Assembly (NCBI GenBank): GCA_025059945.1 | Contig: JANXDC010000015.1 | Location: forward strand, 184,053 to 248,052 | Length of the DNA stretch: 64,000 bases | Source: Bacteroidota bacterium | GTDB lineage: Bacteria; Bacteroidota; Rhodothermia; JANXDC01 | Direction: 5' to 3' | Shown here: piece by piece, positions 15,192 to 40,350 of the stretch | Layout: every line of letters begins with the position of its first letter | Position numbering within the stretch: the stretch's first letter is position 1 | Notes under the pieces: generated by a model | Told to the model about the DNA's origin: nothing | Databases searched by the model: none | The model's input: the letters and a program-made list of their open reading frames with translations, nothing else | Position numbers and translations under genes: made by a program

Positions 15192-16102
15192 CAACCGGAG
15201 ATCTCCTCCATGAGTCTGGCTCGGGTGCTTAAGGCCTGTTGTACGAGCTCCCAAACGGTGCGCCGCTCCGTCTCGGATAATTCCAGACGCGGAGGGCGAA
15301 CGCGCGCTGAGCCCATTCCGATGATTTCCTGCACGAGCTTGATGGCCTGCACGAACTTGGGATGCGTATCCAGCCTGAGCAGGGGTAAAAACCATCGATA
15401 AAGCCCTTCTAGCGGCGCTCCGGATCGGGCGCGCGTAAAGAGCACGACGGATTCCCGGGGCAGCGCGTTGGCTAAGCCGGCCACCCATCCCGAGGCCCCG
15501 GAGCGCACGCCCTCAACCACTAGGTCGTCAATACCCACCAGCAGCCGGATGCTATCGCCCAGTAGCGCGCGCAGCGCCGTGATGCGTCGCACATCGCCGC
15601 TGGATTCCTTGACCGCCTCTAACTGGGGGAAACGCTGGGCCAACTCGGCGATCATCTCGGGCACAAAGTCCGTCCCGTACGCGCCGGGGTTGTTGTACAG
15701 CATCACGGGTCGGTCCACGGCATCCAGGATCGACATCACATATTGTCGCGCCTCCCGCTCGTCGGGTCGATATACGTAGGGGGGGAGGAGCATAAAACCG
15801 TGTGCGCCCTGGGCCTGCCCTTGACGGGCCAGTTGGATCACCTGTTGGGTGCTCAGACCAGAAAGGCTCAAGATCACCGGGGCTTGATCGCCCACCGCCT
15901 CTAGAGCCGTCTCGAGCAGTTGGAGCTTTTCCTCCGTTTCCAGAGTAGCGCCCTCCCCTAGGGAGCCGCATAGGATGAGTCCGGAGCAGCCATGCGCAAG
16001 CAGCCAGCGCGCATGCTGGGCGAAAAAGGCGTAATCCACGGCGCCATCGGCTCTAAACGGCGTCGTGACAGCGGGCATAACCCCGGTCCAGGTGGGCTTC
16101 AT
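15191..16102 (-). CDS. DapA/DHDPS-family enzyme, predicted delta1-pyrroline-4-hydroxy-2-carboxylate deaminase
   Basis: Class I aldolase of the dihydrodipicolinate synthase family (VMPAVTTPF...GLILCGSLGEG...). Function assigned from context between hydroxyproline dehydrogenase and KGSA dehydrogenase. Confidence 0.7.
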   Translation of the reverse strand: MKPTWTGVMPAVTTPFRADGAVDYAFFAQHARWLLAHGCSGLILCGSLGEGATLETEEKLQLLETALEAVGDQAPVILSLSGLSTQQVIQLARQGQAQGAHGFMLLPPYVYRPDEREARQYVMSILDAVDRPVMLYNNPGAYGTDFVPEMIAELAQRFPQLEAVKESSGDVRRITALRALLGDSIRLLVGIDDLVVEGVRSGASGWVAGLANALPRESVVLFTRARSGAPLEGLYRWFLPLLRLDTHPKFVQAIKLVQEIIGMGSARVRPPRLELSETERRTVWELVQQALSTRARLMEEISG

Positions 16103-16114
16103 AGACGTTTGCTC

Positions 16115-17368
16115 CTACGCTTGCCATTGGGCCCAAAGTCCAGCGGGAATAGGGAAGATCGGCGGGCGAGCCGGACCTAAGCGCCAGCCGCGCAGGGTCT
16201 CCAAAATAGGCCCACAGACCCGACCTTGACACGGTCCCATCCCGCATCGGCTCTGTAGCTTGGCCGTGGGGCCGTCGGGATAGTGCGCCAGAGCCGACCA
16301 GGGGACGTCCTCACAGCGACAGATGATCGCCTCAGGCCGTACGAGGGAGGCCAGCTCAGGACGCGGCCGCAGCAGTCGGGTGAGCTCTCGGGCGAAGCGG
16401 TGCTCTCGATCCCGCCTCCATCGCCACAGAGCCGGAATCGGGCCTCCGGCTGTGGCGCGTCCGGCGATAAGCCCTTCCCAGATGGCCTTGTCCGCACCCC
16501 CGATGCCGGTGACCTCGCCGGCGGCGTATATGCCGGCTTGAGAGGTCTCTTGATTGGGTCCCACGCGAAGGAAGCCCTCCCGGGTGCGAGCGCAGCCCAG
16601 AAGCTCGCCCAGCTCGGTGTTGGGCGCAAGCCCGTAGCCGAAGCCTACATAGGAGCATCGTAGTTGTCCCGTCTCGCCTCGAGCGTTGCTCCAGCGCAGG
16701 CCTTCGACCCGATCCGATCCCAAAATGCATACGGGCCAACTGTTCCAAAGCAGCCGCAGTCCGCCAAGCGCGCGCCACAGACGCAGGCCCCTTCGAAGCC
16801 GCGTCCATCCTCCGAAGTACAAAAGCAAGCGCGCCCAGGTAAGGGGCGTGTGTTGCTCAAGCACCAGCGGGATGTGCGCGCCGCGCCTGCATAGTTCCGC
16901 AGCCACGGTCCAGAGCAGCGGTCCTGAGCCGGCCAAGACGGTCGGTACCCTCGATATGGGCCATCCGCCCTTAACCAGGGTCTGCAACCCGCCTAAACCG
17001 AAGACCCCGGGCAACGTCCAGCCCACCACAGGCCAGAAGCGCTCCCGGGCGCCTGTAGTCAGGATCAGCCGCTCGGCCTCAAAGCTCTCCAGCCGATCTT
17101 CTCGGCACACGCCCAGCTTGCGGTCCTCGTAGCAGGCGAAGACCACGCTCGCAAGCGGCCAAAGCGTCAGACGTCCGGTCGCCTGCAAAGGCGCCATCGC
17201 CTCCCAGAGTTTTCGATATAGGCCGTCCTTTTTCGCGGGGGGGCCGATCGCCCCGCCGCAGCGGGCTGAGGCCTCCAGTAGGGCCACCTGCAAGCCGGAT
17301 CGGGCGGCCGCGACAGCGGCCGCCACGCCGGCCGGACCGCCTCCTATCACCAGCACGTCATAGCGCAT
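16115..17368 (-). CDS. D-hydroxyproline dehydrogenase alpha-like subunit (FAD/NAD(P)-binding oxidoreductase with C-terminal Cys cluster)
   Basis: N-terminal MRYDVLVIGGGPAGVAAAVAAARSG Rossmann motif. C-terminal CRCEDV...CGMGPCQGRVCG Cys motifs as in opine/hydroxyproline oxidase A subunits. Start overlaps the gamma-subunit stop by 11 nt. Confidence 0.65.
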   Translation of the reverse strand: MRYDVLVIGGGPAGVAAAVAAARSGLQVALLEASARCGGAIGPPAKKDGLYRKLWEAMAPLQATGRLTLWPLASVVFACYEDRKLGVCREDRLESFEAERLILTTGARERFWPVVGWTLPGVFGLGGLQTLVKGGWPISRVPTVLAGSGPLLWTVAAELCRRGAHIPLVLEQHTPLTWARLLLYFGGWTRLRRGLRLWRALGGLRLLWNSWPVCILGSDRVEGLRWSNARGETGQLRCSYVGFGYGLAPNTELGELLGCARTREGFLRVGPNQETSQAGIYAAGEVTGIGGADKAIWEGLIAGRATAGGPIPALWRWRRDREHRFARELTRLLRPRPELASLVRPEAIICRCEDVPWSALAHYPDGPTAKLQSRCGMGPCQGRVCGPILETLRGWRLGPARPPIFPIPAGLWAQWQA

Positions 17369-17612
17369 CGGGGCACTCCACCCGCATCCCCGGAGTGCAC
17401 GGAACCCAGCAAGCCCGTTCCGCCGGGCGACCGTTGATCCTCACCCGGCACTCGAAGCAAAGCCCAATGCCGCAAAGGGGGCCTCGAGGTTTACCCGATA
17501 CGGAACGTCGAAACGCCCAGTAGCCGGCCCGAGCCAGCGCAGCGGCCACCGTAAGGCCGGCTTCCACCGTCATGGGGCGGTCGTTGATCCAGATCAAGAT
17601 GGGTTCGGGCAC
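17358..17612 (-). CDS. D-hydroxyproline dehydrogenase gamma-like subunit, (2Fe-2S)-binding protein
   Basis: About 85 aa. Motif GPLCGIGLCFECRVRINGRP...CWVPC is a 2Fe-2S ferredoxin-like Cys pattern. GTG start at 17612 is preceded by GGAGG. A TTG overlapping the beta-subunit TGA is an alternative. The listed ORF start at 17813 lies inside the beta gene. Confidence 0.6.
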   Translation of the reverse strand: MPEPILIWINDRPMTVEAGLTVAAALARAGYWAFRRSVSGKPRGPLCGIGLCFECRVRINGRPAERACWVPCTPGMRVECPDAL

Positions 17613-18706
17613 AATCTCCCCTCCAGCCGGTAGGGTTCTGGATCCAACACAGGGGGACGATCCAGGACGTATCCCGCCACGAGCTCGGCTACGGCCGGCG
17701 CCATTGCTATCCCCAGGCCCTCCTGGCCGGTAGCCACAAGCCAACGCGGCTGTCCGGGATACGGACCGATAAGCGGACGCCCGTCGGAGGTAGCAGCTCT
17801 CAGGCCCGTCCAAGCCCGCAGCACCGGACAGGAGGTCAGCTCGGGCACGTGCGCGCAGGCCTCAGCCAGTAGCATGGCCATCCAGGTGGGATTCGGGCGC
17901 CGGTCCCAGAGGTCCCATTCGCGCGAAGACCCGATGAGCACTTGTCCGTTGGGCCGGGGATGCAGGTTAAAGGCCCGGGAGCGCGCTTCGGGGGCGCGTA
18001 CGCTATCGTGGTACGCCAAGCTCACCAGGGCGTGCCGGATCAGACCGGGACAGCGGTCCGTTATGGCCAGATGTCCTCTGCGGGGACGCAGCGGCAACTC
18101 CGGCAGAAGCGTCAGCGCCCCCAGACCCGCCGCTATTACGATCCAGGAACTCGCAAGACGTTGACCGTTCTCTAGTCGGATCGCGTTTTCTTCCAGGGCT
18201 ACGACACGAGCTTGCATCAGTTTCGCCCCGAGGGTCTGGGCCCGCTCCAGCAGGTGCCATGCCGCCCGGGGGGCGTAAATTGTGGCATCGTCTGGCACCC
18301 AAAGCGCTCCGAGCCAGCCGGAACGCAGATGGGGCTCTCGGAGCGCAAGCTCCGATTCCTCGAGCAGTTCTGCTGGAAAGCCAGCTTCGATGAATAGCTC
18401 CTGCCACCGCTGGGCTTCTTGCATGGCATGCGCATCCGGGATGAGCCATAGGGTGCTGATACGCGCGTATTCCACCTCTGGCGGCAGCCAGGCGCTCCAC
18501 TGTTGCCAGAGGCTGCGGCCGAGTAGGCTGAGCTCCCAGACCCCGGGGGCGCCCCCGTGGGCCGTAATATGGCCCATTCCCGCGCCCGTGGCCTCGGTCC
18601 CCACAGGCGCCTCGTGCACGACCAGCACGCGCAGTCCTGCCGTCGCCAGACGCCAAGCGCAGGCCGCTCCCGTGATGCCGGCCCCGATGATGAGCACATC
18701 CCGCAT
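17594..18706 (-). CDS. D-hydroxyproline dehydrogenase beta-like subunit (FAD-dependent, DAO family)
   Basis: Start ATG 18706 (MRDVLIIGAGITGAACAWRLATAG, a dinucleotide-binding motif) overlaps the epimerase stop by 1 nt (TAATG). Confidence 0.7.
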   Translation of the reverse strand: MRDVLIIGAGITGAACAWRLATAGLRVLVVHEAPVGTEATGAGMGHITAHGGAPGVWELSLLGRSLWQQWSAWLPPEVEYARISTLWLIPDAHAMQEAQRWQELFIEAGFPAELLEESELALREPHLRSGWLGALWVPDDATIYAPRAAWHLLERAQTLGAKLMQARVVALEENAIRLENGQRLASSWIVIAAGLGALTLLPELPLRPRRGHLAITDRCPGLIRHALVSLAYHDSVRAPEARSRAFNLHPRPNGQVLIGSSREWDLWDRRPNPTWMAMLLAEACAHVPELTSCPVLRAWTGLRAATSDGRPLIGPYPGQPRWLVATGQEGLGIAMAPAVAELVAGYVLDRPPVLDPEPYRLEGRLCPNPS

Positions 18707-19656
18707 TATGGCTCCATGCCCCAACAGAGGGGATCGCGTTCGTCCAGTATTAGGTTGGCTTCTGCCATTACGTGCGCTTCGCCCACGATCCAAGGGATGA
18801 TCCGGTTGGGGTCCTCCGGATCCCGCTCAAAGTAGGCCTCAAAGAGGGCTCCCCCTATGCCTTCCTGTCGCCAGATAGTGCCTGGGGCGAGTTGGCCCTC
18901 GGCGTACAGGCAGGCCAGATGGGCGCATGTGCCCGTGCCGCAGGGGGAGCGATCGTATTGCCCGCCCGGACATAGCACGAAGTTGCGGCTGTGCGCCTCC
19001 GGATGCGTCGGGGGGCCCAGGAGCTCCACGTGATCGATCAGGGCCCCCTCAGGCCCGCGGATGTCGGAGGCGTCCAGGGCACGGCGAACGGCCTGGGCGA
19101 AGGCCCACAGCGCCTCTCGGTTTTCCGGTCGCACCGCCACAGGGGGATCATGAACCAAAAAGAACCAGTTGCCCCCCCAGGCTACGTCCCCCTGCACAAC
19201 GCCCCAGGGGGGCACCTCTAGCGCAAGCGCCGCCCGGTAGCGATAGGCGGGCACGTTGCGCAGGCACACTTGCCCATCCGCTCGCAGTTCGGCCTCCACC
19301 ACGCCCACCGGGGTTTCGAGGCGATGTCGACCTGGCCCGATGCGCCCCAGCCATGCCAAAGCGGCCATGAGGCCGATCGCGCCGTGCCCGCACATACCTA
19401 GATAGCCGACGTTGTTGAAAAAGATCACCCCCGCTATGCAGCTAGAGTCCGCCGGCTCCACAAGCCAGGCCCCGACCCAATGCGCCGCACCGCGAGGTTC
19501 GCAGAGCATAGCGCGCCGAAAGCGATCGTGCTGGTTGCGCAGCCGTTCTAAACGCGCTGCAAGCGATCCTCGGCCCAGATCGGGTCCCCCCTCTAGCAGA
19601 ATGCGCGTGGGCTCCCCGCCCGTGTGCGTGTCCAACACCCGAAGCCGATGGATCAT
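18706..19656 (-). CDS. 4-hydroxyproline 2-epimerase (proline racemase family)
   Basis: Proline-racemase fold with the two catalytic Cys motifs (GMCGHGAIG and SPCGTGTCAHLA). Confidence 0.8.
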   Translation of the reverse strand: MIHRLRVLDTHTGGEPTRILLEGGPDLGRGSLAARLERLRNQHDRFRRAMLCEPRGAAHWVGAWLVEPADSSCIAGVIFFNNVGYLGMCGHGAIGLMAALAWLGRIGPGRHRLETPVGVVEAELRADGQVCLRNVPAYRYRAALALEVPPWGVVQGDVAWGGNWFFLVHDPPVAVRPENREALWAFAQAVRRALDASDIRGPEGALIDHVELLGPPTHPEAHSRNFVLCPGGQYDRSPCGTGTCAHLACLYAEGQLAPGTIWRQEGIGGALFEAYFERDPEDPNRIIPWIVGEAHVMAEANLILDERDPLCWGMEP

Positions 19657-19675
19657 CGGTGCATGCCCCGTAAGT

Positions 19676-19695
19676 CGCGCTTAAATTTTAGCGCG
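19676..19695. promoter_or_regulatory. 20-bp palindrome CGCGC-TTAAATTTTA-GCGCG in the divergent hyp / araC-type intergenic region; candidate operator
   Basis: Perfect 5-bp GC arms flank an AT-rich centre. Lies within a TAAAAT -10-like element in the 73-bp divergent promoter region. Confidence 0.35.
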
Positions 19696-19729
19696 TGCTA
19701 TAGGGTCCGATCTTGACCGAATTGCGCCT

Positions 19730-20482
19730 ATGCAAGACGACAAAGCGGCACAAAACCGACAAGCCGATGAGCTTCCGGTCGCCTCATGGAAGGAGCTTGA
19801 GAGGCTATTTGACGCGATGCCGGATGTGGTGTTCTTCGTCAAGGACGCCCAAGCCCGGTACGTGTGCGTAAACCAGGCCCTGCTGCGTCGACTCGGGGCT
19901 GTAGATAGGTGCGCCGTGATCGGACGCACGGCGCGGGAGGTATTCGGGCAGCCCTGGGGTGTTCGCTACAGCGAGCAGGACGAGCAGGTGCTGCGGACCG
20001 GCTGGCCTATCCAAGGGCAGCTTGAGCTACATCGGTATCCCAAAGGTCAGGAGGGATGGTGCTTAACCTACAAGTTTCCCCTACGCGATTCGGCCGGCCG
20101 CATCGTGGGCCTATACGGGTTTTCTCGAGATCTGCCGCACCCTGATCCCGCAGAACCCGTTTACTCAGCCCTGGCCGATGCCCTGGCTTATCTGCGAGCG
20201 CACCCCGAGGCGCCCATCCGCATCAGCGATTGGGCCCAGCAGGCGGGACTGCGACGGGAGCGCTTTGAGCGCCTGCTTAAGGCGCTTTTCGGCTTAACGC
20301 CCCGCCAGCTTCTTGTACAAGTTCGGATTGAGCGGGCCGTTCGGATGCTGCAAGAGACCGACTGGCCGATTGCCCAGATCGCGTTTGCCTGCGGATACGG
20401 GGACCAGAGTGCCTTTACGCGTCAGTTCCGCCGTGTGGTGGGCTTAAGCCCACGTCGATTTCGCCAAGTTTGGGGCTCCTAA
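19730..20482 (+). CDS. AraC-family transcriptional regulator with N-terminal PAS-like sensor domain
   Basis: C-terminal AraC HTH (IAFACGYGDQSAFTRQFRRVVGLSPRRFR). N-terminal PAS-like region. Divergent from the hydroxyproline operon. Confidence 0.8.
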   Translation: MQDDKAAQNRQADELPVASWKELERLFDAMPDVVFFVKDAQARYVCVNQALLRRLGAVDRCAVIGRTAREVFGQPWGVRYSEQDEQVLRTGWPIQGQLELHRYPKGQEGWCLTYKFPLRDSAGRIVGLYGFSRDLPHPDPAEPVYSALADALAYLRAHPEAPIRISDWAQQAGLRRERFERLLKALFGLTPRQLLVQVRIERAVRMLQETDWPIAQIAFACGYGDQSAFTRQFRRVVGLSPRRFRQVWGS

Positions 20483-21675
20483 GATAGCCAACCGCTCCTG
20501 GCAAGCCAATCCGCGAGAAGCCAGCCAACCTGAAGCGCTGAGGTGGCCGCCGGACTGGGGGCGTTAGCTACGTGCAGCAGCCGCTCGTAGGCGTCCAAGA
20601 CGAAATCGTCCACCAGGCTTCCGTTTCGATCAACGGCCTGAGCGCGCACCCCGCTCGGAGCAGGTATCAGGTCCTCCGGTCGCACCGCGGGCACCAGGCG
20701 TTGTACGGCTCGACAGAACCGATTGCGGCTCCAGGAGCGCCAAAGCTCCTCCAGGCCCACGCGCCAATAGCGCGCGGCCATGCGCCAAAATCCAGGGTAG
20801 CGCAGATAATCCGCCATGTCCGCAAGCCGCGCTTCCCGCCACCGGTAGCCCTCCCGAGCCAAGGCCAGAACGGCGTTGGGCCCACATTTGACGCGTCCGG
20901 TTAGCGTGCGCGTCAGATGCACCCCCGCAAACGGAAACCGGGGATCGGGCACGGGATAAATCAGGTTGCGGCAGAGGAAGCTCGATTCCGGTCGCAACCA
21001 GTAGAATTCACCCCGAAACGGGATAATCCGCATCCGCGCTCGATAGCCGAAACGCTCCAGCAGCCGATCAGCATCGAGGCCGGCGCAGAGCACCGCAACA
21101 TCTACTTCAACTTCTCCTTTGGGGGTGAGCAGCACCCATCCTCGGCTGCTGCGCTGGGCCCGCAGCACAGCTCGGGCTGTGTGCACTTGGCCGCCCCGTT
21201 CCTGGATGCGCAAGGCCAGGCGTTGGCAGACAGCCTGAAAATCCACGATACCCGTTTCGGGTACATGTAGGGCGGCTATCCCTTGCACGTACGGCTCTAA
21301 TTGGCGCAGCTGCTCTGGTCCGATCCGGTGACAAGTTACGCCGTTGGCCTGCCCTCGACGGTGTAGCTCCTCCAGCCAAGCTAGCTCGCCGCGATGGGTG
21401 GCCACGATCACTTTGCCGCATCGCTCAAAGGGCAGTCCCTCGGCTTCGCAGAAGGCCTCCAGGGCCCGTTTGCCTGCGCGACAGTTAATCGCCTTCAGGG
21501 ATCCAGGCCGATAGTAAATTCCCGAATGCAGCACGCCGGAGTTGCGCCCAGACTGGTGAGCGGCCAACGTGGGCTCCTTCTCGAAAAGCAGCACCTGCGC
21601 CCGCGGAAAACGCTCTTGTATCCGGTACGCCGCGGCCAATCCCACGATGCCACCCCCAACCACGCCGATCTTCAT
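20479..21675 (-). CDS. lhgO: L-2-hydroxyglutarate oxidase (FAD-dependent)
   Basis: MKIGVVGGGIVGLAAA FAD motif. FRGEFYWL, GVRAQAV and CNAPSPAATSA motifs are characteristic of LhgO/YgaF. Confidence 0.75.
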   Translation of the reverse strand: MKIGVVGGGIVGLAAAYRIQERFPRAQVLLFEKEPTLAAHQSGRNSGVLHSGIYYRPGSLKAINCRAGKRALEAFCEAEGLPFERCGKVIVATHRGELAWLEELHRRGQANGVTCHRIGPEQLRQLEPYVQGIAALHVPETGIVDFQAVCQRLALRIQERGGQVHTARAVLRAQRSSRGWVLLTPKGEVEVDVAVLCAGLDADRLLERFGYRARMRIIPFRGEFYWLRPESSFLCRNLIYPVPDPRFPFAGVHLTRTLTGRVKCGPNAVLALAREGYRWREARLADMADYLRYPGFWRMAARYWRVGLEELWRSWSRNRFCRAVQRLVPAVRPEDLIPAPSGVRAQAVDRNGSLVDDFVLDAYERLLHVANAPSPAATSALQVGWLLADWLARSGWLS

Positions 21676-31620: not shown

Positions 31621-32754
31621 TTATAGGCGACGGCTGATTCGGGGAAGGATTTCGGCCTTCCAGGAGCTGAAATCCCCCTCAAGGATGTGCCGGCGGGCCT
31701 CCCGAACCAGCCACAGATAAAAGGCCAGGTTCTGGGTGGAGACGATCTCTAGACCCAGGATTTCGTCTACGGAGAACAGATGCCGCACGTAGGCTTTGCT
31801 GTAGCGCTGGCTCACCTCGGTCTGCAGTCCGGGGTCCAGGGGGGAAAAGTCCCGCGCCCAGCGCGCGTTGCGGATGTTGAGGATGCCCTCCGTGGTGAAG
31901 ACCATGCCGTTGCGGCCGTTTCGAGTGGGTAGCACGCAATCAAACAGGTCCACTCCACGCGCGATGGCCTCTAGGATGTTTTCCGGGGTGCCCACGCCCA
32001 TAAGGTAGCGGGGTTTATCGGGGGGCAGGATGTCCGTGACGAGCTCCGTCATGGCGTACAGCAGCTCCGCGGGTTCGCCCACGGAAAGGCCTCCAATGGC
32101 GTAGCCGCTGAAATCCCAGCTCAACAGCTGCTCTGCGGAGCGCCGGCGCAGATCCGGATGCGTGCCCCCCTGCACAATGGCGAACAGGGCCTGATCATGC
32201 CCGTAACGGGGGCTTGTCTGGCGCCAGGCGCGCCAGGCGCGCTCGGCCCAGCGTGTGGTGCGCGCTACCGCCTCGGCCATATAGGCATGCTCACAGGGCC
32301 AGGGCGGGCATTCGTCCAAGACCATCATGACGTCCGAGCCGATCGTGCGTTGCGCTTCTATTACGGATTCCGGGGAGAAATGCAGGTAGGCGCCGTCGAT
32401 ATGGTTGCGGAAGACCACGCCGTCGTCCGTGATCCGGCGCAGGCCCGATAGGCTGAAGATCTGATATCCCCCGCTATCGGTGAGGATCGCCCGCGGCCAG
32501 GCCATAAAGCGATGCAGCCCACCAGCCTGCGCTAGGACTTCCGTTCCGGGGCGCAGGTAAAGATGATAGGTGTTGCCCAGCAGGATCGGCGCTTCCAGTT
32601 CCCGCTCCAAGACCTGTTGGGGCACGGCCCGCACCGAAGCGCGGGTGCCCACAGGCATAAACATCGGCGTGGGCACCGAACCGTGTCCCGTGTGCAGCCA
32701 GCCGGCCCGGGCGCGTGAAGCCGGATCGGTGGCCACGAGCTCAAAGCGCACCAT
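31621..32754 (-). CDS. tgt: queuine tRNA-ribosyltransferase
   Basis: Tgt motifs. Catalytic region DSGGYQ, zinc site CxCxxC...H equivalents (CVLPTRNGRNG...H) and LLGVGTPE. Confidence 0.9.
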   Translation of the reverse strand: MVRFELVATDPASRARAGWLHTGHGSVPTPMFMPVGTRASVRAVPQQVLERELEAPILLGNTYHLYLRPGTEVLAQAGGLHRFMAWPRAILTDSGGYQIFSLSGLRRITDDGVVFRNHIDGAYLHFSPESVIEAQRTIGSDVMMVLDECPPWPCEHAYMAEAVARTTRWAERAWRAWRQTSPRYGHDQALFAIVQGGTHPDLRRRSAEQLLSWDFSGYAIGGLSVGEPAELLYAMTELVTDILPPDKPRYLMGVGTPENILEAIARGVDLFDCVLPTRNGRNGMVFTTEGILNIRNARWARDFSPLDPGLQTEVSQRYSKAYVRHLFSVDEILGLEIVSTQNLAFYLWLVREARRHILEGDFSSWKAEILPRISRRL

Positions 32755-32772
32755 CGAGGCAGGAGGGGGATA

Positions 32773-33159
32773 TCAGCCTTGCTTGCGTTTGCAGTCGATG
32801 CAGATCGTCGTGTGGGGCACGATCTCCAGGCGCTCTTTGGGGATGGGGCGGCCGCACTGGCGGCAGACGCCATAGGTGCCTTCTTGGATCCGCAGCAGGG
32901 CGCGCTCCAGATAGCGCAAAAATTTGACTTCGCGGTCGTGCAGCAGGTAGGCCTGCTCCAGTTCGCTATCCGGGTTGTGGGTGACCTCGTCGGGGGAAGA
33001 GGCCAATCGCCCCTCTCCGTTGCGGTTTTCCAGGTTATCGCGGATCTGCTCCTCGAGGTACTGGATGTCCGCCTGCACTTGGCGCATCTTCTCGAGAATG
33101 ATGCGGCGGAAATGCTCCAGTTCCTCGGCCGAGTAAGGGGACTTGGGGGGCGTCTCCAT
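32773..33159 (-). CDS. dksA: DksA/TraR-family C4-type zinc-finger protein
   Basis: C-terminal CRQCGRPIPKERLEIVPHTTICIDC zinc finger. Coiled-coil N-terminus. Start ATG 33159 (METPPKSPY). The listed ORF start at 33498 is an upstream alternative. Confidence 0.75.
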   Translation of the reverse strand: METPPKSPYSAEELEHFRRIILEKMRQVQADIQYLEEQIRDNLENRNGEGRLASSPDEVTHNPDSELEQAYLLHDREVKFLRYLERALLRIQEGTYGVCRQCGRPIPKERLEIVPHTTICIDCKRKQG

Positions 33160-33215
33160 AGCGTGGCCTCTGCGCGGGTCTGCCGACTCAAGCACGGACA
33201 AGCGACGTCGCAAAA

Positions 33216-34388
33216 TTACGCCTCTTGGACGGCGCTTCCAAATGCCAGGGGTGATTGGGGCGGCGCTGTGCCGTCTAAGATGGGCACCCCAGGTGGGGCC
33301 GGCCGGTAGCGGTACCGTTGGTCGCGTAGCCGAGGCGTAAAGCCCGCCTCCAGAATGCAGCGCTGTATTGCTTCGGCGTCCATGCGGTAAGACGCTCCGG
33401 CCGCCGAGACCACGTTTTCCTCGATCATGATCGAGCCCAGATCGTTGGCGCCCCCATAAAGGGCCAGTTGGGCGACCTCGGGCCCCACCGTAAGCCAAGA
33501 GGCTTGAATATTGGGGATGTTCGGAAGCATAAGGCGGCTTATGGCGAGCACCCGTAAGTATTCAGCGGCCGTTACCTGGTTACGCACCCCCAAAACCCGA
33601 CTTAATCGGGTGCCTACGTCCTGGTACGGCCAGGGGATAAAAGCGATGAACCCAATCGCCCCTTCTGGTTTTTCGTCTTGCAGATCCCGGATAAGCAGCA
33701 AATGCTGCAGCCGCTCGACGACGCTTTCAACATGGCCGAACATCATGGTGGCTGTGGTCAGAAGCCCCAGTCGGTGCGCGGTGCGCATCACCTGCAGCCA
33801 TTCGGCTGTGCTGCATTTGCCTCGGGCGATGAGCCGACGCACGCGGTCTGAGAGGATTTCGGCCCCGGCTCCGGGCAGAGAATCCAGCCCGGCCGCGATA
33901 AGCCGCTGCAGGGCTTCCTCGATCGAGATGCGGCTCACCTTCGTGATGTGGATCACTTCGGGAGGCCCCAGGGCGTGCAGCTTAAGATCGGGGAAGCGGG
34001 ATTTGATCTTGCGAAAAAGCATCTCATAGTACTCGATGCCCAGCTCCGGGTTGTGCCCCCCCTGCAACAGGAGCTGGTCTCCTCCGAGGGCTATGGTCTG
34101 TTCGATCTTTTGGTACAGCGTCTCATCGTCCAGCACGTAGCCCTCCGGATGGCGAGGGGGGCGAAAGAAGTTGCAAAACAGGCAGTTGGCGTTGCAGACG
34201 TTTGTGTAGTTGACATTTCGGTCGATGATCCACGTCACTACGCGTTCCGGATGCTTGCGCATGCGCAGCTCATGTGCGGCGAGCATGAGCTCGCTTAACG
34301 GAGCCCGTTCGTAGAGCAGGAGCCCCTCTTCTAGGCTCAATCGGTCTTCGTCTAGAGCGCGGTCCAATATGGAGACCCAGTCCTTCAT
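33216..34388 (-). CDS. radical SAM enzyme, MqnC/MqnE family (futalosine-pathway menaquinone biosynthesis)
   Basis: CxxxCxFC radical-SAM motif (CNANCLFCNF). Length and architecture match MqnC/MqnE. Start ATG 34388 (MKDWVSIL). The listed ORF start at 34724 is over-extended. Confidence 0.75.
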   Translation of the reverse strand: MKDWVSILDRALDEDRLSLEEGLLLYERAPLSELMLAAHELRMRKHPERVVTWIIDRNVNYTNVCNANCLFCNFFRPPRHPEGYVLDDETLYQKIEQTIALGGDQLLLQGGHNPELGIEYYEMLFRKIKSRFPDLKLHALGPPEVIHITKVSRISIEEALQRLIAAGLDSLPGAGAEILSDRVRRLIARGKCSTAEWLQVMRTAHRLGLLTTATMMFGHVESVVERLQHLLLIRDLQDEKPEGAIGFIAFIPWPYQDVGTRLSRVLGVRNQVTAAEYLRVLAISRLMLPNIPNIQASWLTVGPEVAQLALYGGANDLGSIMIEENVVSAAGASYRMDAEAIQRCILEAGFTPRLRDQRYRYRPAPPGVPILDGTAPPQSPLAFGSAVQEA

Positions 34389-34399
34389 AGTCGCTATGG

Positions 34400-35239
34400 T
34401 CACGTTACGAGGCTGGCAATCGAGACAAACTGCAGCGGCGGAACGGCTGGAATCAGGCCTTCCTCGCAGGCCAGTTCCCAAAAGCGCCGTAGCCCCGCTA
34501 GTTTCGATCGATCTAGTTCGTATTCCACGCGGTTCTCCAGGTAGTCCAGGTATTGGCCTAACGCTCCGCCGTGTTCCCGCTGCCAGGCCCGGGCGATGCG
34601 CGCGCGGTTTTGCAGGCCCTCTTGCAAGCTGCTTTGCAGGAGCAGAGCCCGCTCGAAGGTAAGATGCTCCGGATAGCCCGCCCAGAGCGCGAAAACGAAG
34701 GGCATGCCGGTCCAGCTCACCCATTCCCAGGCCAGATCGCGCACGTGCGGCCAGCGTCCCAGATGATCGAAGGCCCGGTCGCCGATGATCAACCCAGCGC
34801 TGCGGCCGCCAATATAGGCCTCATAGCCAGGTTCGGTTTCAACGAATTCCGGTTGTATGCCCCATTTTCGACGACAGAGGATCCGCACCAAGGCAGCGGA
34901 GCTGGAGGAGCTGTAATCAAGCAGGATGCGCTCGATGTGGGCTAGCGGTACCTCGCTGACCAGAAGCACGGTGCGCACCTCGGAACTTGCCCCGATGCAC
35001 AGGTTCGGAGCTATTACCAGGCCGTCGATGCGCGCGTATTCGATCGCAGGTATGAGCCCGATATGCACCTGCCTTTGTGCAAGCCGGCGGGCGCAGAGGC
35101 GCGGCAGCTCAAAGCTTAAGCTCAAGCCCAGCGCCCGCAGTCTTTGGCGCGTTAGCCCGTATACGAGGGGCTGCGCGTTGAGGTAAGGCACGGCGCATAG
35201 GCGCGTTAGGGTTTCGGCGTGTCCCGTAAGAGGGGTCAT
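34400..35239 (-). CDS. mqnA: MqnA-like protein (chorismate dehydratase family, futalosine pathway)
   Basis: Periplasmic-binding-protein-like fold typical of MqnA/MqnD (LCAVPYLNAQPL...). Operon context between the two Mqn radical-SAM genes. Confidence 0.6.
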   Translation of the reverse strand: MTPLTGHAETLTRLCAVPYLNAQPLVYGLTRQRLRALGLSLSFELPRLCARRLAQRQVHIGLIPAIEYARIDGLVIAPNLCIGASSEVRTVLLVSEVPLAHIERILLDYSSSSSAALVRILCRRKWGIQPEFVETEPGYEAYIGGRSAGLIIGDRAFDHLGRWPHVRDLAWEWVSWTGMPFVFALWAGYPEHLTFERALLLQSSLQEGLQNRARIARAWQREHGGALGQYLDYLENRVEYELDRSKLAGLRRFWELACEEGLIPAVPPLQFVSIASLVT

Positions 35240-35244
35240 GCGCT

Positions 35245-35883
35245 CTAATACCGGCTCATGGGATCTGGCTCGGGCTCCAGATGGCTTGTGTCGTTAAGCA
35301 GCAGGGCCTCGAAGCCTCCGGCCCCGTAGCGCAGTACGTTTAAGGCGCCGTTCGTGTGCGCGATCTCTTCCATGCGCTCTAGTCCCCATCCCAACAGCGT
35401 GCACAGGAGCACACGCAGCATGCGTCCGTGGCCCACGATGAGGATGTGTTGGGCCGGATCCTCGAGCAGCTCCTCTATCACGACCCGAAGCCGGCGCTGC
35501 AGATCCAGGGGGCTTTCCCCGCCGGGTAGGGCGCGCTCCACATGCCCTTGACGCCAAGCTTCCTGTAGGGAGCGCAGGATGGCATCTAGCTCCGCATCCA
35601 CCAGACGACCCTCGTAGAGGCCCCAGTCCATCTCCGACAGGCCTGGATACTGACGCACCCGAACCCCCGGATGGCGGGCGGCGATGATCTGAGCCGTCTC
35701 CAAAGCCCGGCGCAGGGGGCTAGAGGCGATCAGCTCAAGCGGCTGCTGGGCCAGGCGTTCGGCCAGACGGGCGGCCTGCGCTCGGCCTCTGGCGTTTAGG
35801 GGGGCGTCTAGGCCGCGGCCCTGCAAGAGGTTGCGTCGGTTGGGTTCGGTTTGCCCGTGGCGCACAATGTAGAAATATTTCAT
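35245..35883 (-). CDS. histidine phosphatase family protein (phosphoglycerate mutase-like)
   Basis: RHG catalytic motif at the N-terminus (IVRHGQTEPN) with a second His (LIVGHG). ATGA overlap with the upstream radical-SAM gene stop. Confidence 0.75.
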   Translation of the reverse strand: MKYFYIVRHGQTEPNRRNLLQGRGLDAPLNARGRAQAARLAERLAQQPLELIASSPLRRALETAQIIAARHPGVRVRQYPGLSEMDWGLYEGRLVDAELDAILRSLQEAWRQGHVERALPGGESPLDLQRRLRVVIEELLEDPAQHILIVGHGRMLRVLLCTLLGWGLERMEEIAHTNGALNVLRYGAGGFEALLLNDTSHLEPEPDPMSRY

Positions 35884-37046
35884 GCGAGCACCGGCAGATC
35901 TACCGGTTCCGGAGGGGGGTCCTGGGTGTAGATGCGGATTACGCGGTACAGCGTATCCCGTTCGACCGGGATGCGTCCAGCCTGGCGAATCAAGCGTATC
36001 AACTGGTTTGTCGTCATGGCCGGATGCTCCTCGCCGCCTGCCATAGCGTAAATGCGCGTGGTATCGTCGATCGTGCCGTCCACGTCATCGACCCCAAAGG
36101 ACAGGCTGATCTGGGCCGTCTGCCGGCCGATCATGGGCCAGTACGCCTTTATGTGGGGGATGTTGTCCAGGTACAGCCGACAGACCGCGTAGTTTTTAAG
36201 GTCCTCCAGCATGGGGACCTCGCGCAGGTGGCTCAGTCGGTTGTTGGCGCGTTTGAACTTAAGCGGGATAAAGGCTTGAAAGCCCCCGGTTTCATCCTGC
36301 AAGTTGCGTAGCTTTTCCAAGTGATCGATCCGGTGCTCGTAGCGCTCCAGGTGCCCGTAGAGCATGGTGCACGTGGAGGGGATGCCGAGCTCATGGGCCG
36401 TCCGGTGGATCTCAAGCCACTGTTCGCCGCTGGCTTTGCTGTCGCAGATCTGCTCGCGCACCTCGGGATGAAAGATCTCGGCCCCCCCGCCGGGCAGGGA
36501 GTCCAGGCCGCAGGAGCGCAGATACTGCAGAGCCTCTCGGATGCCCATGCGGGATCTGGCGGCCATGACGGCGATCTCCACGGCCGTAAAAGCCTTGATA
36601 TGCAGATCCGGCCGGATCGCCTTGATGCGCCGCAGCATCTCCCCGTAGTACTCCACCCCTCGCTTGGGATGCACGCCGCCTACGATGTGCACCTCGGTGA
36701 CGGGCTTGTCCTTGTAGCGCTGCACGATTTGCTCGATCTCATCCAGCCCGTACTCCCAAGCTCCTTCCTGGCCCGGCCGGCGGGCGAAGGAGCAGAAAGC
36801 GCAGTCGAAGATGCAGATGTTGGTGGGCTCGATGTGGAAGTTCCGGTTGAAATACGCGTAGTCTCCGTGCAAACGCTCGCGCACGAAATTTGCCAGCGCC
36901 CCCAGAAAGGAGACGTCCGGACACCGGTACAGGGCCAACCCCTCGGCTGGGCCGAGTCGCTCTCCGGCGGCGACTTTTTCGGCGATCTTTCTATACGGCT
37001 GGGATACGCGATAGCGATCCAAGAGGGTGCTTAGGAAATCCGCCAT
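35880..37046 (-). CDS. radical SAM enzyme, MqnE/MqnC family (paralog of 33216..34388)
   Basis: CIFDCAFCSF radical-SAM motif. Paralogous to the other Mqn radical-SAM gene. Start ATG 37046 (MADFLSTLL). The listed ORF start at 37184 is over-extended. Confidence 0.75.
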   Translation of the reverse strand: MADFLSTLLDRYRVSQPYRKIAEKVAAGERLGPAEGLALYRCPDVSFLGALANFVRERLHGDYAYFNRNFHIEPTNICIFDCAFCSFARRPGQEGAWEYGLDEIEQIVQRYKDKPVTEVHIVGGVHPKRGVEYYGEMLRRIKAIRPDLHIKAFTAVEIAVMAARSRMGIREALQYLRSCGLDSLPGGGAEIFHPEVREQICDSKASGEQWLEIHRTAHELGIPSTCTMLYGHLERYEHRIDHLEKLRNLQDETGGFQAFIPLKFKRANNRLSHLREVPMLEDLKNYAVCRLYLDNIPHIKAYWPMIGRQTAQISLSFGVDDVDGTIDDTTRIYAMAGGEEHPAMTTNQLIRLIRQAGRIPVERDTLYRVIRIYTQDPPPEPVDLPVLA

Positions 37047-37051
37047 AGCTC

Positions 37052-37663
37052 TTATCGACGTTGCCAAAACTCCAGGATCCGCTGCCGCATCTCCTCTAGA
37101 TGCGGCAAGGCCACATCCAGGCGAATGGCGTATCGAAGCAGACGGCCTCGCAAGATGGCATCCGCCTCGGGCAAGTGATACCACCCCAATTTAAGGGGTC
37201 CCAGCAGATGTCGGGCCAACCAGTCGATGATCCCGTACCGAAATAGCACAAAGCCGGCTAGCCCCGTTGCGGCCGAGGCCCACTGCTGGGTCATCAGCAA
37301 GACCGAGAGTACGATCAGATATAGAAGAAATTGCAGCCACAGCTGTTGGAGGTGGTAAAAGACGCGCGCCAGGGTTTCGGAGTACCAGGCGGGCTTAAGC
37401 AGCTCCCAGAGCACGTAGAGGCCCAGCGTCGTCAGGGTTGCCACCCACCACGGCAGCTTCCAAAGCAACAAGGGCAACAAGACGATGCCCAGGGCCCAGC
37501 CGGAGCGGTACCACGTGCTGGCCTCGGCCAAGACCTGCTCCAGGGGCACGCGCTCCAGCACGGGTCCGGCGTATGCGCGCAGGGCCTCTTCGTTGGCGTA
37601 AAACCAGACGCCTTCGGCCGTCAAAATCCCGCCCGGTGTGCTCACGTACGTGGTGGGCTTCAT
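37052..37663 (-). CDS. hypothetical integral membrane protein embedded in mqn/ubiDX operon
   Basis: About 4 predicted TM helices. ATGA overlap with the ubiX stop. No recognisable motif, and it is not a UbiA prenyltransferase (no NDxxD motifs). Confidence 0.45.
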   Translation of the reverse strand: MKPTTYVSTPGGILTAEGVWFYANEEALRAYAGPVLERVPLEQVLAEASTWYRSGWALGIVLLPLLLWKLPWWVATLTTLGLYVLWELLKPAWYSETLARVFYHLQQLWLQFLLYLIVLSVLLMTQQWASAATGLAGFVLFRYGIIDWLARHLLGPLKLGWYHLPEADAILRGRLLRYAIRLDVALPHLEEMRQRILEFWQRR

Positions 37664-38238
37664 ACGGTCCGCTGGCCTTCCCCCCAGCGGAAGGCGCCAG
37701 GAGACGGAAGGCCGATGAGGTCCAGGATGCGGTGCACGATGCTGTCTACGAGCGCTTCTATGCTTTGCGGGCGGTGGTAGAACGACGGACAGGCGGGAAG
37801 CACGATGGCCCCCGCTTCGGTTACCGCCAGCATGTTCCGCAGGTGCACGGCGTTTAAGGGGGTATCACGGGGCACGAGCACCAGCCGACGGCGCTCCTTG
37901 AGCATTACGTCTGCGGCGCGCGTGATCAGGTCATCCGATGCGCCGTTGGCGATGCGTCCTAGTGTGCCCATGGAGCAGGGCACGACGACCATGTCCGTGT
38001 AGCGCGAAGAGCCCGAGGCAAACGGCGCCGAAAGGTCCGTGGGCTCATAGCGGGCAAAGGGGATGGCGCGCAGGCTCGCTTCATCGAGCTCCTCGCGCCA
38101 CACCGCAAGGGCATGGGCGGAGAAGACCACCGCTACTTCCGCCACCCGGTCCCGCATGCTCGCCAGCTGTTCCAGAAGCCGACGCGCGTACACGGCCCCG
38201 CTTGCCCCCGTTATGGCCACCACGATGCGCTTCTCCAT
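37660..38238 (-). CDS. ubiX: flavin prenyltransferase UbiX
   Basis: MEKRIVVAITGASGAVYARRLLE..., the typical UbiX/Pad1 flavoprotein N-terminus, of UbiX-like length. Confidence 0.9.
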   Translation of the reverse strand: MEKRIVVAITGASGAVYARRLLEQLASMRDRVAEVAVVFSAHALAVWREELDEASLRAIPFARYEPTDLSAPFASGSSRYTDMVVVPCSMGTLGRIANGASDDLITRAADVMLKERRRLVLVPRDTPLNAVHLRNMLAVTEAGAIVLPACPSFYHRPQSIEALVDSIVHRILDLIGLPSPGAFRWGEGQRTV

Positions 38239-38241
38239 GGC

Positions 38242-40179
38242 TTAAGGCTCCACCACGGCGCCTCGGTGGCGGACTTTGGCAAGGTGCTTACGGGATGGGC
38301 TGGGGATCAGCGGCCCCAAACCCAGGCGGGGCCAGAGCACATCGATGCGCGCTATCACCTCGGGAGTCATGGTCAGGATGTTCGGCCAGGGCCTTGTGAA
38401 GCCCTCTTCGGGCCATTTGCGCGTGGCGTCGAAGACCATTCGGGAGGGTAGCCCGGGGCCGCGGGCCGGCACGATCCAGCCGTCTCGTTTGGGGTCGATG
38501 TTGTTCGTAAAGCGCCAAACGGCCTCCGATACGTCCTGCACGTCTACATCGTCCTCCAGGATCACGAGCAAACGCGTGCGCTCGAACTCCGGCATCGCCA
38601 GCAGGGCTTCTGCCACTGCTTGCGCATGACCGGGTCTGCGCTTTTCTATGGCCACGAAAGCCATAAAGGGCCGGTGCGAGGGGATGCAGAAATTCAGGTC
38701 CCGCACCTCCGGAAGCCGGGCCTGCAGTTCCGAAAGCGTGACCGGCGCCGGCTGGCCGCGCACGTCGGCTGCGTCCAAAGGACCCGCGTAACCGGAAAGC
38801 TCCTCCTCCGTTTTCGTGGTGACATCTATGGCGAGTTTGCCCCCAAAAGCCGGGCGGCTGCAGGCGTGATCCAGTACGTCCATCGGGCCTTCGGAGAAGA
38901 TCGCGTCGCGGGCCGGATCGAAGCGCTCAACCGCATAGGGGATGAACTCGGCCAGGTTCTGGATATCGGCCCCCTGGTCGGTGATGACCAGGAGCTTGGT
39001 GAACATCATCTGCCCGGCGCCCAAGACGGTGTGCATGACCCGATGGGCGTGTCCGGGGTACTCCTTCTGGACTTTTACGATCGCCAGGTTGTGAAAGACC
39101 CCCTCTAGGGGGAGGTTCATGTCCAGCATTTCCGGCAAGAGCGTCTTGCGAATCGGGGCCAGGAAGATGCGCTCCGTGGCCTTGCCCAGGTAGGCATCCT
39201 CTTGCGGGGGGATGCCCACGATCGTCGAGGGGTAGATCGCACCCCGTCGGTGCGTGATGCAGGTCACGTGAAAGACCGGATAGTAGTCCGGAAGCGAGTA
39301 GTATCCGGTGTGGTCTCCAAAGGGGCCCTCCAGCCGGAAGGGCTCTTGGGGGTCAACATAGCCCTCGATTACGATATCGGCGTCGGCGGGCACGTAAGCC
39401 GGGATGGTGCGGCAGCGGACCAGCTCAACGGGCTTTCGCCGCAGAAACCCGGCCAGGATGTACTCGTCTATCCCGTCCGGCAGGGGGGCCGTGGCGCAGT
39501 ACGTGTAGACGGGATCCCCGCCTAAGGCCACGGCCACGGGCATGCGCATGTTGCGTTCTTGATAGCGCCGAAAATGCCGGGCCGAGACCTTATGCCGGTG
39601 CCAGTGCATGCCGGTCGTGCGCCCGTCGTACACCTGCATGCGATACAGGCCCACATTCCGCACGCCCGTTTCGGGATCTTGGGTGTGGATGATGGGCAGA
39701 GTCAGAAACGGCCCGCCGTCTTCAGGCCAGCAGGTCATCACGGGAAGCTGCAGCAGGTCAGGAGGTTCCATCGTAACCTCTTGACAGGGCCCCCGAGTGA
39801 CGATCCGAGGCAGGTAGCGGGCCAGACGGCCGTATTTGGGCACCAGGCGCAGTTTGTCCAGCAACGTGCCCGGCGGGGTAAAGGAGAGCAGGTCCATAAG
39901 CTCATCGTGGATCTGGTCCAGGCTCTCCACCCCCAAGGCCAGGCACATACGCCGGTAACTACCGAAAAGGTTAATCGCAAGCGGAAACTCGGTGCCCGTG
40001 TTTTCGAACAGCAAAGCGGGCCCGCCGGACTTGACCACCCGATCCACGATCTCCGTGATCTCCAGATGCGGGCTTATCCGCTCCCGAATCCGCACGAGCT
40101 CGCCTTCGGCTTCTAGGCGCTCCAGAAAAGCGCGCAGGCTCGGATAGGCCATAGGTTCTTCCGTTCGCTTTTCGGCCAC
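38242..40179 (-). CDS. UbiD-family (prFMN-dependent) decarboxylase
   Basis: 645 aa UbiD-family architecture. It sits immediately upstream of ubiX with a 3-nt gap. In the futalosine pathway, UbiD/UbiX homologs are proposed to act in late menaquinone steps (inference). Confidence 0.85.
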   Translation of the reverse strand: MAEKRTEEPMAYPSLRAFLERLEAEGELVRIRERISPHLEITEIVDRVVKSGGPALLFENTGTEFPLAINLFGSYRRMCLALGVESLDQIHDELMDLLSFTPPGTLLDKLRLVPKYGRLARYLPRIVTRGPCQEVTMEPPDLLQLPVMTCWPEDGGPFLTLPIIHTQDPETGVRNVGLYRMQVYDGRTTGMHWHRHKVSARHFRRYQERNMRMPVAVALGGDPVYTYCATAPLPDGIDEYILAGFLRRKPVELVRCRTIPAYVPADADIVIEGYVDPQEPFRLEGPFGDHTGYYSLPDYYPVFHVTCITHRRGAIYPSTIVGIPPQEDAYLGKATERIFLAPIRKTLLPEMLDMNLPLEGVFHNLAIVKVQKEYPGHAHRVMHTVLGAGQMMFTKLLVITDQGADIQNLAEFIPYAVERFDPARDAIFSEGPMDVLDHACSRPAFGGKLAIDVTTKTEEELSGYAGPLDAADVRGQPAPVTLSELQARLPEVRDLNFCIPSHRPFMAFVAIEKRRPGHAQAVAEALLAMPEFERTRLLVILEDDVDVQDVSEAVWRFTNNIDPKRDGWIVPARGPGLPSRMVFDATRKWPEEGFTRPWPNILTMTPEVIARIDVLWPRLGLGPLIPSPSRKHLAKVRHRGAVVEP

Positions 40180-40225: not shown

Positions 40226-40256
40226 AACAAAAAAGCGGGCTTTTAATCCCGCCCGG
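40226..40256 (-). terminator. rho-independent terminator downstream of tRNA-Ser
   Basis: Minus-strand read GCGGG-ATTAAAAG-CCCGC followed by TTTTTTGTTTT. Confidence 0.6.
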
Positions 40257-40261
40257 TAAGT

Positions 40262-40350
<89 letters not shown>

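Follow-up and report, generated by a model that had tools for sequence, protein, structure and literature searches.

Why should an ordinary operon for menaquinone synthesis carry two genes, one for a small membrane protein and one for a histidine phosphatase, that have no assigned step in the pathway? The question is raised by a 64,000-nucleotide stretch of DNA (the window) from a Bacteroidota bacterium of the Rhodothermia (assembly GCA_025059945.1, contig JANXDC010000015.1, positions 184,053 to 248,052), in which seven minus-strand open reading frames (ORFs) run head to tail from position 40179 to 33216 in the order mqnL-mqnM-MEMB-mqnE-HISP-mqnA-mqnC (Table 1). MEMB is our label for the 203-aa membrane protein and HISP for the histidine phosphatase; by itself, the operon is an ordinary futalosine cluster. 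An earlier note on this DNA had proposed the two embedded genes as candidates for missing steps of the futalosine route, and had looked to synteny with menaquinone genes in other genomes to bear this out. The synteny proved strong, but most relatives of the two genes lie in operons of the classical (men) route or beside menG, and a role specific to the futalosine route is disfavoured for that reason. What appears to be new at this locus is a route-independent linkage of a defined HISP clade, and of a small MEMB family without known relatives, to menaquinone genes. In the open-access literature we found no paper that connects futalosine or menaquinone synthesis with a histidine phosphatase or a phosphoglycerate mutase.

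All five MEMB homologs found in a first pass adjoin a His_Phos_1 gene, and a 43%-identical homolog stands at the head of the order MEMB, phosphatase, MenF, MenD, MenH, MenA, MenC, MenE, which is a classical men operon. A scan restricted to one genome per species gave 36 loci, all from Rhodothermales-type Bacteroidota and including Salinibacter, Salinivenus, Longimonas and Roseithermus; these were annotated by tblastn with our own reference proteins, plus Pfam spot checks. MEMB heads a classical menF-menD-(menH)-menA-menC-menE operon in 34 of the 36 genomes. The gene that follows it is HISP in 23 genomes, menF in 11, mqnE in one and none of these in one. The single locus with mqnE next belongs to KatS3mg041, an 81%-identical relative. 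One Rhodothermales locus alone is not beside menaquinone genes (L035, 2899-6190): MEMB occurs there without men genes and, judging from ORF translations rather than Pfam, is followed by a LemA-family-like gene and an M48-like peptidase-like ORF. In many classical men loci (L005, 9177-9902, and about 20 other Rhodothermales loci between L013 and L046), a DUF4230 gene directly precedes MEMB in the same orientation; it is absent from the window operon.

The linkage extends to distant, low-GC members of the MEMB family, six of which were inspected (L130 to L135). A Pfam-confirmed HISP gene is next to MEMB in four of the six (L130, L132, L133 and L135), a lipoprotein-like ORF occupies its place in L131, and in L134 the ORF downstream of MEMB is incomplete. 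A UbiE/MenG methyltransferase gene follows HISP in L132, as identified by Pfam, and in L130, as identified from N-terminal sequence only; in L131 it lies ~1.6 kb downstream of MEMB. The ORF that replaces the phosphatase in L131 (2070-2651) encodes 193 aa, and in a 396-aa protein, P0284, the same lipoprotein-like domain (motif NFV-x-PGPV) is fused to the MEMB C-terminus. There are hints here that this domain could be a second, alternative partner of MEMB. On the upstream side, a ComF-like phosphoribosyltransferase gene directly precedes MEMB in L130 (808-1521) and L131 (657-1370), and in L132 a 244-aa ORF without a Pfam match (7252-7986) lies at the corresponding position.

The neighbourhoods of the phosphatase were examined with an alignment of MEMB-linked phosphatases as the query in a metagenome scan, which returned at least 80 loci; the counts given here for HISP refer to the matches listed. 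The order mqnE-HISP-mqnA, as in the window, was found about 30 times, HISP lay beside MenF/MenD genes about nine times and a MEMB-HISP pair was present twice, while the remaining loci had no menaquinone gene nearby. In a neighbour-joining tree of 98 sequences, built without support values, all menaquinone-linked phosphatases fall into one clade. A menaquinone gene lies within 1.2 kb of HISP in 21 of 21 loci of this clade and in 0 of 18 loci of its sister clade, when only loci with 1.5 kb or more of flanking sequence on each side are considered and L094, whose protein is identical to that of L093, is counted with the sister clade. By source names, the clade covers Mucilaginibacter and Sphingobacterium (Sphingobacteriaceae), Saprospiraceae, Cytophagales, Cecembia and Rhodothermia. 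Mucilaginibacter, Sphingobacterium and Roseithermus are cultured genera, and Cecembia is represented by a metagenome-assembled genome (MAG).

Four arrangements with non-homologous neighbours could be distinguished. In Mucilaginibacter and Sphingobacterium the gene order is mqnE-HISP-mqnA, as an isolated three-gene unit confirmed by Pfam; in Cecembia-type loci HISP is divergent from menI-menF-menD, a Pfam-confirmed thioesterase-MenF-MenD operon; the other two are MEMB-HISP-menF and MEMB-HISP-menG. When all neighbouring ORFs were clustered, only menaquinone genes recurred among the matches listed, and no kinase was found among these recurrent neighbours. In the tree, classical-route phosphatases are nested among futalosine-route ones and the window HISP stands beside the Rhodothermales group, which is compatible with a module inherited vertically through a change of head-group route.

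Taken together, these observations argue for selection to co-express HISP and MEMB with menaquinone synthesis as such. Ancestral synteny is ruled out as the cause, because the neighbours are non-homologous sets: futalosine genes, men genes and the terminal methyltransferase that the two routes share. It is plausible that a lineage changed its route and kept the MEMB-HISP module, since swaps within orders have been documented and the two menaquinone routes are almost mutually exclusive (PMC13386864).

We next considered what the proteins themselves reveal. The catalytic residues of HISP (R8, H9, N15, R59, E84 and H152) are all present, and the same residues, together with G10, do not vary among 12 diverse members linked to menaquinone genes, so that the enzyme is predicted to be catalytically intact. 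Six positions (G24, W87, G113, R154, M171 and H176) form a signature that separates the clade from its sister clade; they flank the catalytic His, with R154 beside it. With HISP, no named NCBIfam model reaches its cut-off. Candidates rejected on this basis were the alpha-ribazole phosphatase CobC (TIGR03162, 121.3 vs. 162.9; NF011580, 76 vs. 250 bits), the phosphoserine phosphatase PspA (81.5 vs. 350 bits), GpmB (82.5 vs. 261 bits), dPGM (pgm_1, 32.6 vs. 81.7 bits) and SixA (31.9 vs. 74.5 bits). A role as a replacement for MenH was likewise set aside, as MenH and HISP occur together in many loci and several loci have neither. The closest solved relative, 9MMH, lacks at least W87 (SFG instead of SWG) and also the GGES motif of the clade; other solved relatives are PhoE, PspA, CobC and fructose-2,6-bisphosphatase. 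PhoE (1H2E), PspA (4IJ5) and CobC (6NRU) share with HISP the PF00300 fold, the catalytic R-H-G, N, R, E and H residues and a size of ~205-215 aa. HISP differs from them in its sub-cut-off scores, its own signature and its linkage to menaquinone genes, which has not been described for any of the three. In the source databases, members of the clade carry generic names only: PhoE, probable phosphoglycerate mutase or pspB.

MEMB matches no Pfam or NCBIfam model. The five homologs mentioned above came from a word-indexed search of 5.8 billion proteins; a profile search gave 63, all unnamed and none with a Pfam domain, and when 1.84 billion cluster representatives were searched exhaustively with a profile, only 195 of them matched. 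An AlphaFold2 model built from 49 sequences is confident (pLDDT 89.8, pTM 0.80) and consists of an N-terminal beta-hairpin followed by ten helices, four of them hydrophobic; it matched no solved fold and has no structural relative. The N-terminal region of ~50 aa, which contains the hairpin, is soluble, and the C-terminal tail is helical and rich in Arg and Lys. The four hydrophobic helices and the ten Arg/Lys residues of the tail suggest a topology in which both ends would be cytoplasmic. None of the invariant residues is of an obviously catalytic type, and MEMB lacks the structural similarity and conserved Cys pairs of a vitamin K epoxide reductase-like four-helix protein. A function as a membrane scaffold, which the earlier note had raised, is possible.

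How, then, might the two proteins serve menaquinone synthesis? The account we prefer, to which we give roughly an even chance, is that MEMB and HISP form a route-independent accessory module tied to menaquinone synthesis and do not catalyse pathway steps. A specific regulatory version of this role has a less than even chance. An accessory role is favoured because, leaving aside the prenyl diphosphate donor, the intermediates of both routes carry no phosphate; the diphosphate is the sole phosphoester of both routes, and it must stay intact for prenylation. HISP would be a soluble enzyme working on the cytoplasmic side of the membrane, where MEMB, its presumed physical partner in Rhodothermia-type lineages, would anchor or control it. 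Its target there might be an effector, an enzyme or a precursor that does not belong to the carbon skeleton, and removal of phosphate from this target would gate or assist menaquinone production while converting no pathway intermediate. The module would be older than the present route and bound to menaquinone synthesis whichever head-group route is in use.

Non-pathway helpers of membrane quinone synthesis exist elsewhere. UbiJ and UbiK are accessory or regulatory factors of ubiquinone synthesis, and the phosphatase Ptc7/PPTC7 acts on Coq7. The analogy with the proposed role of MEMB and HISP concerns the manner of working only, as these factors have no sequence or fold kinship with them, serve a different quinone and occur in different organisms; no counterpart kinase or target came to light here. 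The nearest precedent is "MenY", a protein of HAD type (PF08282) that has been predicted for men operons of Bacteroides and is sometimes fused to the MenI thioesterase (PMC4746308). Like HISP, MenY has a phosphatase-type fold and is embedded in menaquinone operons of Bacteroidota, and its function is a prediction. Unlike HISP, it has an unrelated fold and is a proposed MenH replacement that occurs solely where MenH is absent, whereas HISP accompanies MenH in many loci and is also found with futalosine genes.

Several points weigh against an accessory module. We know of no menaquinone intermediate of either route that bears a phosphate, so the substrate is a guess, and the absence of a co-conserved kinase among the matches listed weakens a phospho-regulatory model. 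MEMB lacks an adjacent HISP gene in 11 Rhodothermales loci, and in Sphingobacteriaceae, Saprospiraceae and Cytophagales HISP occurs without MEMB; because each is found without the other, it appears that the two can act separately. The groupings come from a neighbour-joining tree that carries no support values, and the contexts were assigned by tblastn with our own references.

HISP could also be read as an enzyme on the pathway. It might catalyse an unrecognised chemical step common to both routes, such as hydrolysis of a phosphorylated head-group, prenyl species or cofactor at the membrane, with MEMB presenting a lipid-bound substrate. Its fully conserved catalytic machinery would be expected of such an enzyme, and R154 beside the catalytic His, with the invariant W87, H176 and M171, suggests a defined pocket that would suit a substrate with an additional anionic group or an aromatic ring. 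Its place between the first two enzymes in the three-gene unit of Sphingobacteriaceae is typical of pathway enzymes, and the unrelated HAD-type MenY is likewise embedded in Bacteroides men operons (PMC4746308). We nevertheless consider a common step unlikely: the textbook routes offer no phosphoester that could be spared, no kinase or phosphotransferase recurs nearby among the matches listed, and 11 Rhodothermales men loci that are intact in other respects have no HISP. Alternatively, MEMB and HISP could be merely co-regulated with menaquinone genes and have some other housekeeping function linked to respiration or the membrane. The generic source annotations of HISP, the broad specificity of the phosphatases that are its nearest solved relatives and the L035 locus, where MEMB keeps company with LemA and the M48-like peptidase-like ORF instead of men genes, are in line with this. 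Co-regulation alone is nonetheless improbable in our view, given that the linkage has been re-established in at least four gene orders whose neighbours (men, mqn and menG) are not homologous, that it is confined to one clade (21/21 vs. 0/18) and that no non-menaquinone neighbour recurs across lineages among the matches listed.

Two narrower proposals are largely excluded by the classical-route contexts. The first assigns both genes to missing steps of the futalosine route; HISP could, for example, act on a futalosine intermediate that is phosphorylated or bears a nucleotide, such as a product of phosphorolytic adenine removal. It is true that mqnE and mqnA directly flank HISP, both in the window and in about 30 of the metagenome loci listed, and MqnB was not found among the window ORFs scanned or annotated. 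This proposal is very improbable, however, as the MEMB family occurs in the classical men operons of 34 genomes, the HISP clade is found in such operons as well, in Cecembia-type loci and beside menG, all of them settings that lack futalosine intermediates, and the tree places phosphatases of the classical route within groups of the futalosine route. The other proposal is that HISP converts dimethylallyl diphosphate to the monophosphate, which would feed UbiX/MqnM for the synthesis of prenyl-FMN. HISP shares the window operon with UbiX and UbiD homologs, and to our knowledge the bacterial source of dimethylallyl monophosphate is incompletely known. Against this stand the mqnE-HISP-mqnA units with no UbiX/UbiD genes nearby and the classical route, which carries HISP yet needs neither protein; we regard the probability of such a supply role as close to negligible.

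Table 1. Features of the menaquinone operon and its upstream boundary (window positions).
Feature	Coordinates	Strand	Evidence
Upstream boundary: tRNA-Ser(GGA) and terminator-like hairpin	40233..40350	minus	ARAGORN; terminator scan
mqnL, UbiD-family menaquinone decarboxylase, 636 aa	38242..40152	minus	TIGR03701; Pfam UbiD_N, UbiD, UbiD_C; public gene call
mqnM, UbiX-family flavin prenyltransferase, 192 aa	37660..38238	minus	TIGR00421; PF02441
MEMB, membrane protein, 203 aa, four hydrophobic helices	37052..37663	minus	Sequence and AlphaFold2 model
mqnE, aminofutalosine synthase (radical SAM), 388 aa	35880..37046	minus	TIGR03700; Radical_SAM and CofH_C domains
HISP, branch-1 histidine phosphatase, 212 aa	35245..35883	minus	PF00300, 184.8 bits
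mqnA, chorismate dehydratase, 279 aa	34400..35239	minus	PF02621, 151.5 bits; PDB sequence matches
mqnC, cyclic dehypoxanthinyl futalosine synthase (radical SAM), 390 aa	33216..34388	minus	TIGR03699; CofH_C, 197.6 bits

The remaining five genes of the operon could be securely assigned from their sequences. MqnE scores 478.6 bits with TIGR03700 (cut-off 434.55) and MqnC 469 bits with TIGR03699 (cut-off 428.1). Both fall below the cut-offs for CofH (304.8 bits for MqnE and 315.8 bits for MqnC, vs. 374.1) and CofG (52.1 and 38 bits vs. 213.35), so the alternative that the earlier note had allowed for its two radical SAM genes, membership of the CofH/CofG families, does not apply. MqnA matches, among PDB sequences, solely the chorismate dehydratase MqnA entries 7AHR, 2NXO, 6O9A and 2I6E, and no MqnD chain at E values up to 0.01. 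For the UbiD and UbiX homologs, which the note had taken for the late decarboxylation pair, MqnL scores 656.6 bits with TIGR03701, the menaquinone-type UbiD model (cut-off 495.9), and MqnM 214.2 bits with TIGR00421 (cut-off 108.9). The note's call of the futalosine route and of this pair was borne out. The locus is accordingly read as encoding the first two steps (MqnA, MqnE), a middle step (MqnC) and the late decarboxylation (MqnL/MqnM) of that route, the assignments being sequence-based predictions. The remaining window ORFs, as far as scanned or publicly annotated, offered no candidate for MqnB, MqnD, MqnP or MqnG, which agrees with the note's statement on MqnB and MqnD; twenty further window ORFs were scanned and included no menaquinone gene.

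A UbiD-family protein is usually ~490 aa long, vs. 636 aa for MqnL. The difference lies in a C-terminal extension of ~190 aa (window 38242-38815) that is an internal duplicate of the UbiD C-terminal domain: Pfam UbiD_C is matched in two stretches, and the repeat has 32% identity over 87 aa (E 1e-13). The MqnL homolog of KatS3mg041 is 86% identical and of equal length. In calling the UbiD homolog MqnL and the UbiX homolog MqnM we follow Ravcheev and Thiele 2016 (PMC4746308). With known futalosine clusters, which comprise mqnA, mqnE, mqnC and the predicted late genes mqnL/mqnM/mqnP (PMC4746308), the window shares MqnA, MqnE, MqnC, MqnL and MqnM, co-oriented in one operon and with scores above the curated cut-offs wherever an equivalog model exists. 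It differs in that MqnB, MqnD, MqnP and MqnG are not among the scanned or annotated ORFs of the 64-kb window, in its two extra embedded genes and in the duplicated C-terminal domain of MqnL.

The seven genes lie on one strand with the tight junctions that the note had described. Read from the sequence, the spacers from mqnL onwards are 3 nt (mqnL/mqnM, stop 38242, ATG 38238), -4 nt (mqnM/MEMB, ATGA overlap at 37663-37660), 5 nt (MEMB/mqnE, stop 37052, ATG 37046), -4 nt (mqnE/HISP, ATGA overlap at 35883-35880), 5 nt (HISP/mqnA, stop 35245, ATG 35239) and 11 nt (mqnA/mqnC, stop 34400, ATG 34388). The long ORFs listed for both radical SAM genes and for UbiD begin upstream of the likely true starts, the mqnL ORF reaching up to GTG 40179; the likely starts, ATG 40152, 37046 and 34388, are those of the public gene calls on three identical MAG contigs. 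Directly upstream of the operon are the tRNA-Ser(GGA) gene (40262-40350) and then the terminator-like hairpin (40254-40233), and a terminator scan gave no terminator-like site on the minus strand inside the cluster. Because of the tight junctions and the lack of such an internal site, the seven genes are predicted to be one transcription unit.

Beyond mqnC, a DksA/TraR-type zinc-finger gene and then tgt occupy the minus strand (31621-33213). The former starts 3 to 56 nt past mqnC, depending on the start codon chosen. The next minus-strand terminator-like sites are at 32679, within the tgt ORF, and at 31629, so the transcript of the mqn genes may extend through both of these genes. Elsewhere in the window (13617-21675) is a cluster, unrelated to the finding, with genes for three FAD-dependent oxidoreductases of the DAO and Pyr_redox_2 types, an aldehyde dehydrogenase and a PAS-AraC regulator.

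The boldest form of these results, that Bacteroidota make menaquinone with a dephosphorylation found in neither textbook route, carried out by a dedicated HISP clade with a dedicated membrane partner of new fold in Rhodothermia-type lineages, is rather doubtful. If true, it would imply that the classical and futalosine routes share some unrecognised phosphorylated compound, be it an intermediate, a precursor or an activator. Both routes are regarded as enzymatically defined, and both are drug targets. As the HISP clade is present in cultured genera, the idea is open to direct genetics and metabolomics, and it would correct thousands of generic database names ("PhoE", "pspB", "phosphoglycerate mutase"). 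A route swap is a natural experiment in which functions that belong to head-group chemistry can be separated from those linked to menaquinone itself. The HISP clade and the MEMB family stay by menaquinone genes after such a swap, and their persistence points to a missing route-independent layer of menaquinone synthesis, which may be regulation, membrane assembly or an unrecognised reaction.

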